Part shown: in pieces, positions 3,655 through 55,669 of the stretch
How positions within the stretch are numbered: position 1 is the stretch's first letter
How the letters are laid out: the number at the start of each line of letters is the position of its first letter
Source: Escherichia coli
Lineage (GTDB): Bacteria; Pseudomonadota; Gammaproteobacteria; Enterobacterales; Enterobacteriaceae
Strand: one strand, 5' to 3'
Length of the DNA stretch: 64,000 nucleotides
Assembly: GCF_003334385.1 (NCBI RefSeq)
Contig: NZ_QOWN01000006.1
The notes under the pieces: generated by a model
Databases searched by the model: none
Told to the model about the DNA's origin: nothing
What the model saw: only the letters and a program-made list of their open reading frames with translations
Translations under genes and position numbers: made by a program

Positions 3655-7007
<3,353 letters not shown>

Positions 7008-15240: not shown

Positions 15241-15291
15241 CGACACTGCTTATTGCTTTGATTTTATTCTTATCTTTCCCATGGTACCCGG

Positions 15292-15378
15292 AGCGGGACT
15301 TGAACCCGCACAGCGCGAACGCCGAGGGATTTTAAATCCCTTGTGTCTACCGATTCCACCATCCGGGCTCGGGAAGAA
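15292..15378 (-). tRNA. leuZ: tRNA-Leu (87 nt)
   Basis: Reverse complement matches E. coli leuZ tRNA sequence as recalled (GCCCGGATGGTGGAATCGGTAGACACAAGGGATTTAAAATCCC...CCA). Confidence 0.95.
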
Positions 15379-15390
15379 AGTGGAGGCGCG

Positions 15391-15464
15391 TTCCGGAGTC
15401 GAACCGGACTAGACGGATTTGCAATCCGCTACATAACCGCTTTGTTAACGCGCCAAATTCTTCA
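15391..15464 (-). tRNA. cysT: tRNA-Cys (GCA), 74 nt
   Basis: Reverse complement matches E. coli cysT (GGCGCGTTAACAAAGCGGTTATGTAGCGGATTGCAAATCCG...). Confidence 0.95.
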
Positions 15465-15507
15465 GGCCTTTCAGCCAGACATCCGCTTGACGCCGATGTC
15501 TTTTAAA

Positions 15508-15584
<77 letters not shown>

Positions 15585-19284: not shown

Positions 19285-19509
19285 ATGAGTACGCCTGATT
19301 TTTCTACTGCCGAGAATAATCAAGAACTGGCAAATGAAGTCTCCTGCCTGAAAGCGATGCTGACGCTGATGCTGCAGGCGATGGGACAAGCTGACGCGGG
19401 CCGCGTGATGTTAAAGATGGAAAAACAGCTTGCGCTGATCGAAGACGAAACCCAGGCTGCAGTATTTTCCAAAACGGTTAAGCAAATTAAACAAGCCTAC
19501 CGTCAGTAA
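19285..19509 (+). CDS. yecF: DUF2594 family protein YecF (74 aa)
   Basis: ORF translation matches YecF. Confidence 0.88.
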
Positions 19510-25419: not shown

Positions 25420-25545
<126 letters not shown>

Positions 25546-47090: not shown

Positions 47091-47177
47091 AAATCCCGAC
47101 CCTGAGGGGGTCGGGATGAAACTTGCTTAAGCAAGAAGCACTTAAAAAATTCGTTACACCAGGAAATCTGATGTGTT
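47091..47177 (-). ncRNA. dsrA: DsrA small regulatory RNA (87 nt)
   Basis: Reverse complement reads AACACATCAGATTTCCTGGTGTAACGAATTTTTTAAGTGCTTCTTGCTTAAGCAAGTTTCATCCCGACCCCCTCAGGGTCGGGATTT, matching DsrA as recalled. Confidence 0.93.
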
Positions 47178-47356: not shown

Positions 47357-49881
<2,525 letters not shown>

Positions 49882-51297: not shown

Positions 51298-51469
51298 TCC
51301 CTCTCATTTTTATTGTTGAAGGGTGTAAGTATGAAGCAAAAACGGCAGCTCTGATACTTGCTTCACAGGTCAACATTTTTTTAACAATCAAGTGCAATTA
51401 TATCTCTCGCCAGCAGAATGATTTTCACGTTTACTATGAACCACCTTTTTATTTCCACCGTGAGGGATT

Positions 51470-52390
51470 ATGCGTTTCCGCCAGTTGTTACCGCTTTTTG
51501 GCGCGCTGTTTGCGTTGTATATCATTTGGGGCTCAACCTATTTTGTCATTCGGATTGGCGTGGAAAGCTGGCCTCCGTTAATGATGGCAGGCGTTCGATT
51601 CCTGGCAGCCGGTATTTTATTGATGGCATTTTTGCTACTGCGCGGACACAAACTCCCCCCGCTACGTCCGCTGCTCAATGCCGCGCTGATTGGCCTGTTA
51701 TTGCTGGCTGTCGGTAATGGCATGGTGACGGTTGCCGAACATCAAAATGTTCCTTCCGGCATCGCCGCCGTAGTGGTTGCAACCGTGCCCCTCTTTACCC
51801 TGTGCTTCAGCCGCCTGTTTGGCATTAAAACGCGCAAACTGGAATGGGTGGGTATTGCCATTGGGCTTGCCGGAATCATCATGCTCAATAGCGGTGGAAA
51901 TTTAAGCGGCAATCCGTGGGGCGCGATTCTGATTTTAATCGGCTCGATTAGCTGGGCGTTTGGCTCGGTTTATGGCTCGCGCATTACCTTACCTGTAGGG
52001 ATGATGGCGGGTGCGATTGAGATGCTGGCGGCAGGCGTGGTGTTAATGATCGCGTCGATGATTGCAGGTGAAAAACTGACGGCACTCCCTTCCCTTTCAG
52101 GCTTCCTTGCGGTCGGCTATCTGGCGCTGTTTGGTTCGATTATCGCCATTAACGCTTATATGTATTTAATCCGCAACGTCAGTCCGGCTCTCGCCACCAG
52201 CTACGCCTACGTTAACCCGGTGGTCGCGGTCTTGCTGGGTACGGGACTGGGCGGAGAAACGCTGTCGAAGATTGAATGGCTGGCGCTCGGCGTAATTGTC
52301 TTCGCGGTGGTACTGGTCACGTTGGGAAAATATCTCTTCCCGGCAAACCCCGTAGTTGCGCCAGTTATTCAGGACGCATCAAGCGAGTAA
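51470..52390 (+). CDS. yedA: EamA/DMT-family transporter YedA (306 aa)
   Basis: ORF translation matches YedA. Confidence 0.93.
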   Translation: MRFRQLLPLFGALFALYIIWGSTYFVIRIGVESWPPLMMAGVRFLAAGILLMAFLLLRGHKLPPLRPLLNAALIGLLLLAVGNGMVTVAEHQNVPSGIAAVVVATVPLFTLCFSRLFGIKTRKLEWVGIAIGLAGIIMLNSGGNLSGNPWGAILILIGSISWAFGSVYGSRITLPVGMMAGAIEMLAAGVVLMIASMIAGEKLTALPSLSGFLAVGYLALFGSIIAINAYMYLIRNVSPALATSYAYVNPVVAVLLGTGLGGETLSKIEWLALGVIVFAVVLVTLGKYLFPANPVVAPVIQDASSE

Positions 52391-52849
52391 ATGAATCCCC
52401 TGCGTGTCGATCTGCGCGCTGGCACCTTCGCCGCAGATCCACTCTTCCAGACGCTCGCTAAGCGCTTCATCCGTCAGCTTCTCGCGCCCACGTAATGCAC
52501 ACTCCCAGACAATCAATACGCGCCAGCCGAGTTCCTGCAAACGACTGATATCGCGGCGATCGCGTTCAACATTTTTACCTATCTTCTCCAGCCAGAACTC
52601 GGTTCGAGTCGCAGGCACTTTAAACAGATAGCAGTGATGATGATGCCAGAAGCAGCCGTGGGTAAATATCACGCAGCGATATTCATCAACGACAAAATCC
52701 GGGCGTCCGGGCAGACTGGCGTCCTGAACGCGAAATGCCAGGCCCTGCCCGGTTAACAGACTGGCGAGGCGCTTCTCTATCGCCGTATCACGCGTGGCAA
52801 TCGCGCGCATATTTTTGCTGCGAGTGGCCTTATCGTGAACGTCGGCCAT
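52379..52849 (-). CDS. vsr: Very-short-patch repair endonuclease Vsr (156 aa)
   Basis: Matches Vsr from [17 protein letters not shown]; start lies inside dcm 3' end. Confidence 0.95.
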
Positions 52850-54248
52850 GTTGTGCCTCTTGCTGACGCAACGCCACCGCCTGTTTGATTTTTGGCTCAA
52901 GCAGTTTTGCCACCGCGGCAAAGACCGGCACGACCACCGAGTTACCGAACTGGCGATAGGCCTGAGTGTCCGAAACCGGAATGCGGAATTTCGCTTCTCC
53001 CGGCGCTTCAAAACCCATTAAGCGCGCGCATTCCCGAGGCGTTAACCGACGTGGACGATGTTGCTGATTCAGCGGATCGTCAAAGTCTTTCTCACCCGTG
53101 GCCATATCCCAGCCGCGATCGATTAAAATTTCCGCGCCATCTTTGTAATAACGCGCAGACAGCGTACGCGTGACGCTTTGCGGATTGTTAGGATAGACCA
53201 TTCCATAACCGAAGCCGTTACCGCGCGCCTGATGTTTTTTCGCATAACGATAGAGGTACTTCCACAGCACCGGCGTCAGGATATATTTCGCCTCGACCAT
53301 CGGGTCCAGCAGCTGTGCCAGCGTCACTCGCTGTGCAGGGAAACATTCGCTGATATCACGCAGAGTAAAATCGGCTTTCAGATTCAGATCGCGACGAAAA
53401 CCCACCAGCACGATGCGTTCACGGTGCTGCGGCAGAAAATGTTTACCATCGATGATTTTCGGATCGTCCGGCCCGTTATCTTCTGCATCAGCCACGTCAT
53501 AGCCCAGTTCGTCCAGCGTCTGCATGATGATGCGGAACGTTTTACCCTGGTCGTGGCTTTTCAGGTTTTTGACGTTTTCGAGCACAAACATCGCCGGACG
53601 ACGCGCGTCGATAATGCGCACCACATCAAAGAACAGCGTGCCCTGAGTATCGCAGGCAAAACCGTGCGCCCGCCCGAGCGAGTTCTTTTTCGATACGCCA
53701 GCCAGCGAAAATGGCTGACAAGGGAAACCGGCCAGTAAAACATCGTGTTCAGGAATGTGTTTACGAATATGTTCCGCCGCCGCCTCATCACTCACGCCTT
53801 CTTTATGGCTGAGGGTGATGTCGCGGATATCTTCATTAAAATGATGCGTCGCCGGGTCGCAATAATGATTGGCTTTATAAGTGCGTACCGCATGTTTGTT
53901 CCATTCGCTGGTAAACACGCATTGTCCGCCAATCGATTCAAAACCGCGACGGATGCCGCCAATTCCGGCAAATAGATCGATAAAGCGAAACGCATAATGC
54001 GGATGATGTGCCGGTGGTTTGGGTAACAACGTTTGCAGATGGGCGAACTCTTTCTCACTTAAACGGTGCCATGCCGAGTCATTCGCCAGCGCACGTTTTA
54101 AAATTGCCGCGCTCCAGTGATTCTCACCCACACCATTAAGCTGCGCCACCAGCGTTTTAACATCATAAATTTGCAGCAGTTTCTCCAGCATTGCCTGTGC
54201 GGCATTCCCGGTGCTGTATGAATCGGTTACTGATATATTTTCCTGCAT
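52830..54248 (-). CDS. dcm: DNA-cytosine methyltransferase Dcm (472 aa)
   Basis: Matches Dcm from [14 protein letters not shown]; C5-MTase motifs FAGIGG and PCQPFS. Confidence 0.96.
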
Positions 54249-54314
54249 AGATTTCACCGGCCATCTGAGATGGCCGACAGGTTAACATAATTACAGCCAT
54301 TTAGGGCCACGCGC

Positions 54315-55010
54315 TCAGCCAGCGGATGAAAACGCATCTATCACCTTGTGATCGACACCTTCATTCTCCCCCGCCAGTTCGGCACTGAGCTTCGCCATAA
54401 ACTCGACTAAAAAATGCGCGTTGTGCTGCGCCAGCTGCTTGCCTCTTGCGGTTTGCATGGTTTGCGGTAGCTTCAGCAACTTAGTCTGGAAATGATCCAG
54501 CGCGTAGCGTTTATCATCAAGCGGGCGATGCTGTGCGAGCGGATCTTCACCATCAAACAGCGCCACGCCCAATGCCCCTGAAACGGCAAACACGCGCGCC
54601 AGGCCAATCGCTCCCAGGGCTTCCAGCCGATCTGCATCCAGGACGATTTTAGCTTCCGTGGTTAAGGGGGCGATTTGCGCGCTGAAACTGTGAGCGGCAA
54701 TGGCATGACAAACGGCCTCAATTTTCTCCGCCGGAAATTGCACGAACTCTTCACGGAGCAGGCGACGCGTCTCTTCTGCTGCCAGGATTGAAGAACGCTG
54801 CCTTTGCGGATGATTTTTCGCCAGGCTCACAATATCGTGAAAATAACAGGCGGTTAAAATCACCAGCATATCGACGTCGTCATCTGCCGCCAGCTTCTGT
54901 GCCGTAGCCCAGACGCGGCGAAAATGACACACGTCATGGGCCGCGTCCTGGTGCTGATGATGGTTTTTCAACCAATTTTCGAACTGTGCCTGCCAGTGTT
55001 GTAAGTCCAT
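54315..55010 (-). CDS. yedJ: HD-domain phosphohydrolase YedJ (231 aa)
   Basis: ORF translation matches YedJ. Confidence 0.93.
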
Positions 55011-55415: not shown

Positions 55416-55643
55416 ATTGGATGAGCCAGTCAAGACTCACTCATTTTTTGAACAAATAGATAATTTTTGCGCAACGGCAGTGAATACAGGAAAAATCGTT
55501 TTGAGCGATTTTATTTATCTTTGATATCGGCTTTATTAATTCATTTAATCAATATATTAGCACTGATTACAATTATACCTTTTTATTATTCTGTGTCATG
55601 ATGCTTACGTTATTAGCCTTTTATCGTCTTGTTTATATTTTTT

Positions 55644-55669
55644 GGGCCGGCATGATGCCGGCTTTTTTT
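55644..55669 (+). terminator. Orphan plus-strand intrinsic terminator (GGGCCGGC-ATGAT-GCCGGC followed by T7) with no upstream plus-strand gene
   Basis: GC-rich hairpin 55644-55662 followed by TTTTTTT 55663-55669; nearest upstream plus-strand CDS is absent. Confidence 0.6.

Follow-up and report, generated by a model that had tools for sequence, protein, structure and literature searches.

The dcm-vsr operon is the textbook case in which a mutagenic modification of DNA (5-methylcytosine at CCWGG) and its own repair enzyme are genetically paired. In Escherichia coli K-12 it consists of b1961-b1960 and is followed by the convergent gene yedA (b1959). The genes dcm and vsr are co-transcribed as one operon (PMC12907096, PMC4924334). 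According to PMC4444293, which cites Dar and Bhagwat (1993), dcm partly overlaps vsr, and vsr activity is lost as well in the dcm-6 mutant, which carries a nonsense mutation at codon 45. PMC2715241, citing Macintyre (1999), describes Vsr as being kept low in growing cells and acting in stationary phase. The convergent pair yedA-vsr has been included among 165 convergent excludons, occurring in at least 50% of 58 MG1655 transcriptomes (PMC12288877). Our search of the literature on vsr and dcm yielded nothing useful on translational coupling, the primary 1993 study being outside the reach of this search.

The stretch of E. coli DNA analysed here (64,000 nt, hereafter referred to as the window) carries the same locus (Table 1). 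The gene order, the strands and both overlaps are as in K-12, the gene lengths are the same (dcm 1,419 nt, vsr 471 nt and yedA 921 nt), and there are no structural differences. The initial annotation had placed the vsr start (52849) 20 nt within the 3' end of dcm (52830) in a different frame, with which translation agrees to the base: vsr (156 aa) is read in the +1 frame relative to dcm (472 aa). It had also claimed that the vsr stop region overlaps the 3' end of yedA by 12 nt (52379-52390), and this was confirmed by translation of both gene ends. The gene names, the frames and the lengths of both overlaps were given correctly and are identical to those of K-12 MG1655, in which the dcm-vsr overlap and gene lengths were compared directly. 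The RefSeq annotation agrees in all three genes, their lengths and their overlaps, both for MG1655 and for an E. coli strain identical to the window over positions 51400-54400. The dcm-vsr-yedA layout is real, ordinary and already known, and it matches K-12 exactly.

Table 1. Features of the yedA-vsr-dcm region, in coordinates of the 64,000-nt window
Feature	Position	Strand	Remarks
yedA, EamA-type drug/metabolite exporter	51470..52390	+	306 aa; TAA 52388-52390; convergent with vsr
yedA/vsr convergent 3'-end overlap	52379..52390		12 nt, TCAAGCGAGTAA on the + strand
vsr, very-short-patch T:G mismatch endonuclease	52379..52849	-	156 aa; ATG 52849-52847, TGA 52381-52379
Terminator-like hairpin with T-run	52791..52817	+ (yedA strand)	antisense to Vsr codons 12-20; consensus match only
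dcm/vsr dual-coding overlap	52830..52849	-	20 nt, ATGGCCGACGTTCACGATAA; dcm stop TAA within Vsr codons Asp6-Lys7 (GAT AAG)
vsr Shine-Dalgarno-like AAGAGG	52856..52861	-	in Dcm codons Gln-Glu-Ala, 6 nt upstream of ATG; putative function
dcm, DNA-cytosine (CCWGG) methyltransferase	52830..54248	-	472 aa; TAA 52832-52830; translation, annotation
yedJ, HD phosphohydrolase	54315..55010	-	same strand, 66 nt upstream of dcm; annotation

The identity of the encoded proteins was examined using profile and structure comparisons. Dcm scored 951.4 bits against NCBIfam NF007772 (cut-off 710) and 350.8 bits against TIGR00675 (cut-off 100.65), and its translation contains the catalytic PCQ and ENV motifs (GFPCQPFS and FVLENVKNL, respectively). 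Residues 1-118 of Vsr matched NCBIfam TIGR00632 with 182.7 bits (cut-off 97.85), and 154 of 155 residues are identical to those of PDB chain 1cw0_A, the sole difference being T131S. The Vsr translation contains D51, T63, C66, F67, W68, H69, H71, C73, W86, D97 and C117, which, following the crystal-structure literature on Vsr, we take to be the catalytic, zinc-binding and intercalating residues. YedA matched the NCBIfam equivalog NF008432 with 513 bits (cut-off 270) over residues 1-291 of 306; its C-terminal tail in the overlap falls outside this profile match. The C-termini read ...QHGRRSR in Dcm and ...VIQDASSE in YedA.

At least 80% of the 3-kb stretch was found in 5,353 of 5,426 complete E. 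coli genomes, and the 81-nt junction stretches were matched in 5,320 and 5,364 of them. The window differs from K-12 at 43 of 2,779 positions (98.45% identity), with no indel and no change in either overlap: the same 20 nt of the dcm/vsr overlap are present in K-12, and K-12 and three divergent E. coli lineages carry the 12-nt yedA/vsr overlap without any change. Only four amino-acid changes relative to K-12 were observed, i.e. Dcm Q163K, Vsr T131S, and YedA L52M and K293N. In the three divergent E. coli strains inspected dcm-vsr-yedA is annotated identically. In some E. coli lineages the yedA/vsr junction seemed to carry a 1-nt indel (80 record bases against 81 query bases). This was rejected as an artefact of gapping by megablast; the genes of these lineages have the usual lengths and overlaps.

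We interpret the locus as a canonical dcm-vsr operon, in which vsr has its own start in the +1 frame and is probably translationally coupled to dcm, and whose mRNA overlaps that of the convergent yedA in antisense. The probability of this reading is, in our estimation, about 85%. Dcm methylates the inner C of CCWGG, deamination of the resulting 5-methylcytosine creates a T:G mismatch, and nicking of this mismatch by Vsr begins very-short-patch (VSP) repair. Both proteins would be made from one minus-strand mRNA. Ribosomes translating dcm are expected to cross the vsr Shine-Dalgarno (SD) sequence (52856-52861) and AUG (52849) and to halt at the UAA (52832-52830) lying in vsr codons 6-7, whereas Vsr would have a separate initiation event at the vsr AUG, in the +1 frame, with frameshifting presumably not involved. 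Vsr synthesis would probably depend on dcm translation, so that whichever cell makes the mutagenic methylase would also make the repair enzyme. The composition of the window is consistent with a footprint of VSP repair, as CCWGG is in excess (150 sites versus 88.7 +/- 8.8 expected) and CTWGG/CCWAG are in deficit (31 versus 177.7 +/- 13.9 expected).

The view that dcm and vsr form a coupled pair and are expressed together is in line with the literature. Coupling would not set a constant Dcm:Vsr ratio, because Vsr is reported to be low during growth and active in stationary phase; controls beyond coupling exist.

The vsr frame is open upstream of its ATG, as far as a TTG at 53011 (210 aa in the list of open reading frames). 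The true start is nevertheless the ATG at 52849, since it is the annotated one, the protein chain in 1cw0_A begins from Ala2, and the same N-terminus is found in species devoid of dcm. The AAGAGG motif pairs with the 3' end of 16S rRNA with -5.8 kcal/mol, and a purine-rich GAG core recurs at its position in the cross-species alignment described below (49 sequences). As in coupled cistrons, the downstream start and its SD sequence are located within the upstream ORF, the vsr ATG lying 20 nt inside dcm and the SD sequence 6 nt further upstream. That vsr initiates independently follows from the unchanged Vsr start and N-terminus in the dcm-less loci inspected.

The arrangement was compared in 80 Enterobacteriaceae species, and an alignment of 49 sequences was built from 48 of these species and the E. 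coli studied here. The 20-nt dcm/vsr overlap is present in 48 of the 80 species; the TAA is provided by Vsr codons 6-7 in 49/49 sequences, and the vsr start codon in this set is ATG in 46 cases and GTG in 3. Overlaps of 14, 17 or 35 nt occur in 8/80 species, and each of them results from a synonymous or codon change relocating the out-of-frame TAA. The two genes are separated in 6/80 species, only a dcm remnant is left in one, and in 17/80 vsr is still found at this locus but the 3 kb upstream of it contain no dcm. Upstream ORFs were listed for 11 dcm-less loci, and in 7 of them vsr lies 11-19 nt behind a yedJ-like ORF. In the alignment the Vsr N-terminus is conserved (or a near variant), whereas the Dcm tail is variable (HGRRSR, HGGRSR, NDGCAQ and others). 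The length of the overlap would be set by an out-of-frame stop that arises in the conserved N-terminal codons of Vsr, the Dcm tail probably being the less constrained reading. Thus vsr has repeatedly outlasted the loss of dcm. The exact arrangement is not obligatory, because variants of 14, 17 and 35 nt and loci with a separated or absent dcm exist, and Vsr expression can dispense with the overlap, because the genes are separated in 6 species and vsr stands alone in 17. The idea that GAT at Vsr codon 6 is selected only where dcm is present was rejected, as 10 of 11 inspected species without dcm have GAT too.

Gene overlaps as such are common. Among the 76 pairs of adjacent annotated genes in the window 17 overlap, i.e. 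15 of 53 co-directional pairs (by 1-26 nt, with 10 of these 15 by 1 or 4 nt) and 2 of 11 convergent ones. However, the 20-nt dcm/vsr register recurs in 48 of the 56 species with an overlap. It could be argued that the overlap is a neutral by-product without a regulatory role, the dcm frame merely continuing to the first out-of-frame stop in vsr, with vsr translated via its own SD sequence regardless of dcm translation and the two genes co-expressed by co-transcription alone. We find this explanation rather unlikely, though several observations favour it: the overlap length follows the TAA within the Vsr codons, the Vsr reading is kept where the Dcm tail varies, 23/80 species (the 6 separated and 17 dcm-less ones) encode Vsr with no overlap at all, short overlaps are frequent in the window, and a conserved occluding structure was not found at the vsr ribosome-binding site (RBS). 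On the other hand, PMC4444293, citing Dar and Bhagwat (1993), states that a nonsense mutation at dcm codon 45 removes vsr activity. Moreover, of the 62 species whose dcm is intact, 56 have a dcm frame that continues beyond the vsr start, and dcm-embedded SD sequences are on average weaker than those of dcm-less species (-5.4 versus -7.4 kcal/mol; Mann-Whitney p = 0.006, uncorrected for phylogeny). The weaker embedded SD fits a dependence of vsr on upstream translation. The effect of dcm-6 on vsr could alternatively be explained by transcriptional (Rho-dependent) polarity instead of coupling. A sequence scan did not reveal any sigma-70-like site inside dcm or in the yedJ-dcm spacer, and yedJ is possibly a part of the same transcription unit as dcm-vsr.

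As for the mechanism of coupling, opening of an occluding hairpin by the ribosome, which is a common though not an obligatory route, is unsupported, because folding of the vsr RBS region is not more stable than that of shuffled sequences (z = -0.39) and the hairpin is unconserved. Such a hairpin, enclosing the vsr SD sequence and AUG, is present in the E. coli MFE fold, but this candidate was rejected on both of these grounds: across 48 distinct sequences 67% of its cells retain pairing, and the hairpin is missing from the RNAalifold prediction. At alignment columns 35/84 several pair types occur, but 21 of the 48 sequences are unpaired there.

At the opposite end of vsr, the 12 nt shared with yedA encode the poorly conserved C-terminal tails of both proteins. 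The junction is tight in all 78 species compared, the extremes being a gap of 28 nt and an overlap of 86 nt, but its length drifts. As intergenic space is absent, the yedA and vsr transcripts must presumably end inside each other's gene, and their mRNAs would overlap in antisense. The initial annotation's remark that the locus leaves little room for separate terminators holds, given that a terminator-like site is absent at the yedA/vsr junction and the gap does not exceed 28 nt in the 78 species. Its proposal that a shared terminator be sought downstream led to a negative result, as none lies between or just past the two stops. On both strands the scan was negative for terminator-like sites in the overlap (52379-52390) and immediately past it, and the downstream regions of the two genes did not fold more stably than their shuffled versions (z = -0.25 and +0.25). 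Intrinsic terminators were found neither for vsr within yedA nor for yedA in the adjoining part of vsr.

The sole terminator candidate is the hairpin at 52791-52817, located inside vsr about 400 nt past the yedA stop, in a region where the scan returned 9 terminator-like sites versus 4.9 +/- 2.3 expected. The Vsr residues KNM and RAIATR fix the T-run and 5 of the 7 base pairs of the stem, and the third positions of R15 and T19 are complementary on the + strand in 38 of 81 species, against an estimated 32 or so expected. For these reasons it was rejected as a conserved yedA terminator, and it is probably a by-product of coding.

One might also suppose that the yedA/vsr overlap functions as an excludon, in which yedA read-through lowers Vsr via transcriptional interference or RNase III cleavage. 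The pair belongs to the E. coli MG1655 'excludome' (PMC12288877), no more than 28 nt is intergenic in any of the 78 species, the 5' region of vsr contains a terminator-like site on the yedA strand, and Vsr is described as low in growing cells in PMC2715241. Nevertheless, pairs with overlapping coding ends score as excludons nearly automatically, the hairpin and T-run are mostly forced by Vsr codons, with R15/T19 pairing little different from expectation, and the overlap length is unconserved. We consider this explanation improbable. In such an excludon, yedA transcripts might end at 52791-52817, short of dcm, and this would add to the low level of Vsr in growth. Slimmer still are the chances of the more specific proposal that yedA read-through, antisense to all of vsr and ending at 52791-52817, lowers Vsr but not Dcm. 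If true, it would account for the scarcity of Vsr in growth despite an mRNA shared with Dcm, and the missing intergenic space (28 nt or less in 78/78 species) would be a selected feature.

It is very improbable that Vsr arises by +1 frameshifting, fused to the C-terminus of Dcm, and not from its own start. The vsr frame is indeed open upstream of the ATG to TTG 53011, but this ATG is preceded by an SD sequence 6 nt upstream, the solved Vsr chain begins at Ala2, and the dcm-less loci inspected retain the MADVHDK N-terminus behind their own intergenic SD sequence. Dar and Bhagwat, in 1993, reportedly did not find a Dcm-Vsr fusion, and this reading has effectively been refuted already. Finally, a sequencing or annotation artefact (frameshift error) as the source of the overlaps is hardly credible, considering the lack of indels relative to K-12 over 2,779 nt, the junctions matched in 5,320 and 5,364 of 5,426 genomes, and the arrangement being kept in other genera.

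By these results the window is a piece of ordinary E. coli chromosome, and the accepted picture is left unchanged. The comparative additions are modest: the 20-nt register is widely kept among Enterobacteriaceae, the choice of Vsr codons sets its length, vsr has repeatedly survived the loss of dcm, and the yedA/vsr junction stays closed.

In its general plan the dcm/vsr junction resembles the textbook coupled pairs (ATGA/TAATG), which are likewise co-directional, with the downstream start and SD sequence inside the upstream coding sequence and the stop near the start. However, those pairs overlap by 1 or 4 nt, whereas the dcm/vsr overlap of 20 nt would leave the terminating ribosome 17 nt past the AUG. 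Convergent excludons are defined by overlapping 3' transcript ends, while at yedA-vsr the coding sequences themselves overlap, and the length of this overlap is evolutionarily unstable (from the 28-nt gap to the 86-nt overlap). Pairs of m5C methyltransferase and vsr genes are known elsewhere, e.g. in Neisseria, where, as here, the function of a Vsr-family endonuclease is associated with that of a cytosine-5 methyltransferase. Genetic linkage of the two is usual (PMC12907096). On the other hand, the methyltransferase and vsr genes of the Caulobacter ScmA/VsrA system are unlinked (PMC12907096), unlike those of the E. coli locus described here.

The vsr gene begins inside the 3' end of dcm and ends inside the 3' end of the convergent yedA gene. 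Gene frames were taken from the ORF list and from direct reading of 52200-53000. Translation bore out the initial annotation, which had the vsr start 20 nt within dcm in another frame (the vsr ATG has a +1 offset relative to the dcm frame); reading of both frames likewise bore out the 12 nt shared by the yedA and vsr ends, and all of its coordinates were correct. A 210-aa ORF in the vsr frame, starting from TTG 53011, is only a mechanical extension of the open frame.

Features of the dcm-vsr-yedA locus, of related loci and of the rest of the window (window positions unless a locus number, L, of another Enterobacteriaceae species is given)
Feature	Position	Strand	Remarks
vsr	ATG 52849-52847, TGA 52381-52379	-	156 codons; translation
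dcm	ATG at 54248, TAA 52832-52830	-	472 codons; translation
yedA	51470 to TAA 52388-52390	+	306 codons; ORF list
dcm/vsr overlap	52830-52849	-	20 nt, ATGGCCGACGTTCACGATAA
yedA/vsr convergent overlap	52379-52390	yedA +, vsr -	12 nt
SD-like AAGAGG of vsr	52856-52861	-	6 nt upstream of ATG; sequence reading
Candidate hairpin, 7 bp, plus CATATTTTTG	52791-52817	+ (yedA strand)	antisense to Vsr codons 12-20, vsr 5' coding region
yedJ-dcm spacer	54249-54314		66 nt
DsrA	47091-47177	-	Rfam/ARAGORN search
RseX	55580-55669	+	Rfam/ARAGORN search
ES036 (CssrF), borderline	25470-25511	+	38.1 bits vs gathering score 37.6; between fliA and flagellin gene
tRNA Leu-Cys-Gly cluster	15282-15584	-	Rfam/ARAGORN search
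Locus with dcm remnant, Klebsiella indica	L035:2836-3555		remnant of 51 aa (residues ~297-347), directly upstream of vsr
Interposed ORF, Buttiauxella	L055:2185-2703; L057:2035-2553		172 aa
vsr of the dcm-less species	~3001 in each of L030, L037-L039, L041, L043, L048, L049, L059, L060, L062, L064, L069, L071, L074, L077, L085		17 loci

The gene identities are supported by NCBIfam scores above the cut-offs: 182.7 bits for Vsr (TIGR00632, cut-off 97.85), 951 for Dcm (NF007772, 710) and 513 for YedA (NF008432, 270). Vsr is identical to PDB chain 1cw0_A at 154 of 155 positions, and the first residue of this chain, Ala2, supports ATG 52849 as the true start.

Comparison with K-12 showed the same 20-nt and 12-nt overlaps in the MG1655 annotation (yedA 2029539-2030459, vsr 2030448-2030918, dcm 2030899-2032317). 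The 2,779 aligned nt contain 43 substitutions (98.45% identity), with no indels, four amino-acid differences in total and no substitution within either overlap. Among 5,426 complete E. coli genomes, 5,353 have a site that spans 80% or more of the 3-kb locus query, with dcm, vsr, yedA and yedJ annotated, and 81-nt queries centred on the two junctions found matches in 5,320 and 5,364. A junction one base shorter in some of these matches is a gapping artefact, as gene lengths and overlaps are identical in three such records.

A Vsr scan of species-representative genomes yielded 80 Enterobacteriaceae loci, in each of which Vsr, Dcm and YedA were located. The 20-nt dcm/vsr overlap occurs in 48 species (in genera such as Escherichia, Salmonella, Citrobacter, Klebsiella, Enterobacter, Lelliottia, Trabulsiella, Yokenella). 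Four species (Raoultella, Pluralibacter and one further Enterobacteriaceae) have 17 nt, two (Superficieibacter, GTG start inferred) 14 nt, and two (Siccibacter) 35 nt. The genes lie apart in six species, for the most part Buttiauxella. In seventeen (among them Kosakonia, Phytobacter, K. oxytoca, K. spallanzanii and Pseudescherichia vulneris) vsr still stands at the yedA locus, but the 3 kb upstream of it contain no dcm homologue. In Klebsiella indica only a dcm remnant is present; Vsr is 184 aa long and overlaps yedA by 86 nt. This locus looks like one in which dcm decayed by deletion and vsr was kept. A 172-aa opposite-strand ORF separates dcm from vsr in four Buttiauxella species; in L055 and L057 its N-terminus is signal-peptide-like and the dcm-vsr spacing is ~0.9-1.0 kb.

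In the 49 sequences of the 20-nt register (48 species and the window) the dcm stop is always TAA, and vsr starts with ATG in 46 and GTG in three; alignment columns of the overlap have a mean conservation of 0.93, those of the 20 nt upstream 0.67. The Vsr N-terminus hardly varies, whereas the same bases encode a variety of Dcm tails (HGRRSR, HGGRSR, NGGRSQ, NDGCAQ and others), and the TAA that ends dcm lies within Vsr codons 6-7 (GAT/AAT/AGT + AAR). With GAC as Vsr codon 6, as in Siccibacter, the dcm frame stays open until the next TAA embedded in vsr, at codons 11-12, and the overlap grows to 35 nt; CAT AAC at codons 5-6 ends dcm one codon sooner and shortens the overlap to 17 nt. Hence vsr is the constrained reading, the Dcm tail follows it passively, and the overlap length results from Vsr codon choice; the recurring trait is a dcm frame that runs beyond the vsr start.

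Overlap as such is ordinary. According to the RefSeq annotation of the near-identical strain FDN-24 (NZ_CP158147.1) transferred onto the window, overlaps occur in 17 of the 76 pairs of adjacent features: 15 of the 53 co-directional pairs (1-26 nt, ten of them by 1 or 4 nt) and two of the 11 convergent ones, one of these being yedA/vsr. Co-directional examples are otsB/otsA (5054-5079; 26 nt, longer than dcm/vsr) and yecU/yecF (19285-19298; 14 nt). The second convergent pair, yedP (+)/dgcQ (-), shares 4 nt (48187-48190) and is also among the published MG1655 excludons, i.e. overlapping transcripts of neighbouring genes (PMC12288877). The conservation of the dcm/vsr register, on the other hand, is not due to chance. 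Up to 55.6 kb the window and FDN-24 differ by only 0-2 scattered substitutions per kb; a single 1-nt indel follows near 55669, at the 3' end of rseX, and past it identity is ~99.5%.

That Vsr arises as a frameshift fusion is ruled out by the dcm-less loci and by the separated genes of Buttiauxella, and the same natural variants show that the overlap is unnecessary for making Vsr. In the dcm-less loci inspected, vsr keeps the MADVHDK start and is preceded by an SD of its own; a GAG-rich core recurs across species at the SD position in the alignment. Dar and Bhagwat are said to have found in 1993 that translation of Vsr begins at a start codon of its own but requires translation of the upstream dcm to be efficient. 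According to PMC4444293, which cites Dar & Bhagwat 1993, dcm partially overlaps vsr and the dcm-6 nonsense mutation (codon 45) abolishes vsr activity too. Both genes are co-transcribed in one operon (PMC12907096; PMC4924334). An SD that lies within dcm pairs less strongly with the 16S 3' end (mean -5.4 kcal/mol, 48 species) than a free-standing one (mean -7.4, 17 dcm-less species; Mann-Whitney p = 0.006, species treated without phylogenetic correction), and we count this as supporting a putative translational coupling.

Shuffled sequences fold as well as the vsr ribosome-binding region does (z = -0.39), and the E. coli hairpin enclosing SD, AUG and UAA is 67% paired over 48 distinct sequences and was not recovered by RNAalifold. 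Coupling, if present, would more likely come from ribosomes delivered or re-initiating near the stop than from a conserved hairpin being melted. Vsr is reported to be scarce during growth and to act in stationary phase (PMC2715241, citing Macintyre 1999), so coupling sets no fixed Dcm:Vsr ratio. The yedJ-dcm spacer gave no match to a sigma-70-like promoter, and the one hairpin in it (54310-54293, minus strand) is weak; in seven of the 11 dcm-less loci with upstream ORFs listed a yedJ-like ORF precedes vsr by 11-19 nt. The short spacer and this adjacency suggest that dcm-vsr may be co-transcribed with yedJ.

At the opposite end, vsr faces a convergent yedA in all but two of the 80 species; of these 78, the coding ends overlap by 9-86 nt in 63 and are separated by 0-28 nt in the other 15; in Buttiauxella L055 and L057 the stops abut exactly (overlap 0). 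Most Citrobacter have an overlap of 9 nt, Escherichia and Salmonella one of 12 nt, and Klebsiella and Enterobacter one of 26 or 29 nt. It encodes the C-terminal tails of both proteins, and its length drifts because these tails fall outside the family profiles, which end at Vsr residue 118 of 156 and YedA residue 291 of 306. A scan of both strands for a shared terminator detected no terminator-like site at the junction or just past it, and the two downstream regions are no more structured than shuffled sequence. The candidate hairpin within vsr is not classed as a terminator here: coding for Vsr residues KNM and RAIATR imposes the T-run and five of the seven pairs, and the third positions of R15/T19 can pair on the yedA strand in 38 of the 81 sequences, where our calculation from base frequencies predicts ~32. 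Overlap of the yedA and vsr transcripts is unavoidable. The published set of 165 convergent excludons of MG1655 includes the pair (PMC12288877), as it would almost any pair with overlapping coding ends.

An excess of CCWGG together with a deficit of CTWGG/CCWAG is a known word bias attributed to very-short-patch repair. Against dinucleotide-preserving shuffles of the 64-kb window (1-64000), CCWGG is 1.7-fold over-represented (150 observed, 88.7 +/- 8.8 expected) and CTWGG/CCWAG nearly 6-fold under-represented (31 observed, 177.7 +/- 13.9 expected). This matches the known bias, although codon usage and the fact that CTAG is rare in general contribute to these counts too.

The initial annotation was essentially right in its interpretation: the dcm-vsr overlap is the one known from textbooks, and the convergent yedA next to it is likewise part of an arrangement already described. 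Our comparative details do not amount to a new kind of system; the overlap length set by Vsr codons, the repeated loss of dcm with vsr kept, and a junction that never opens are small additions.
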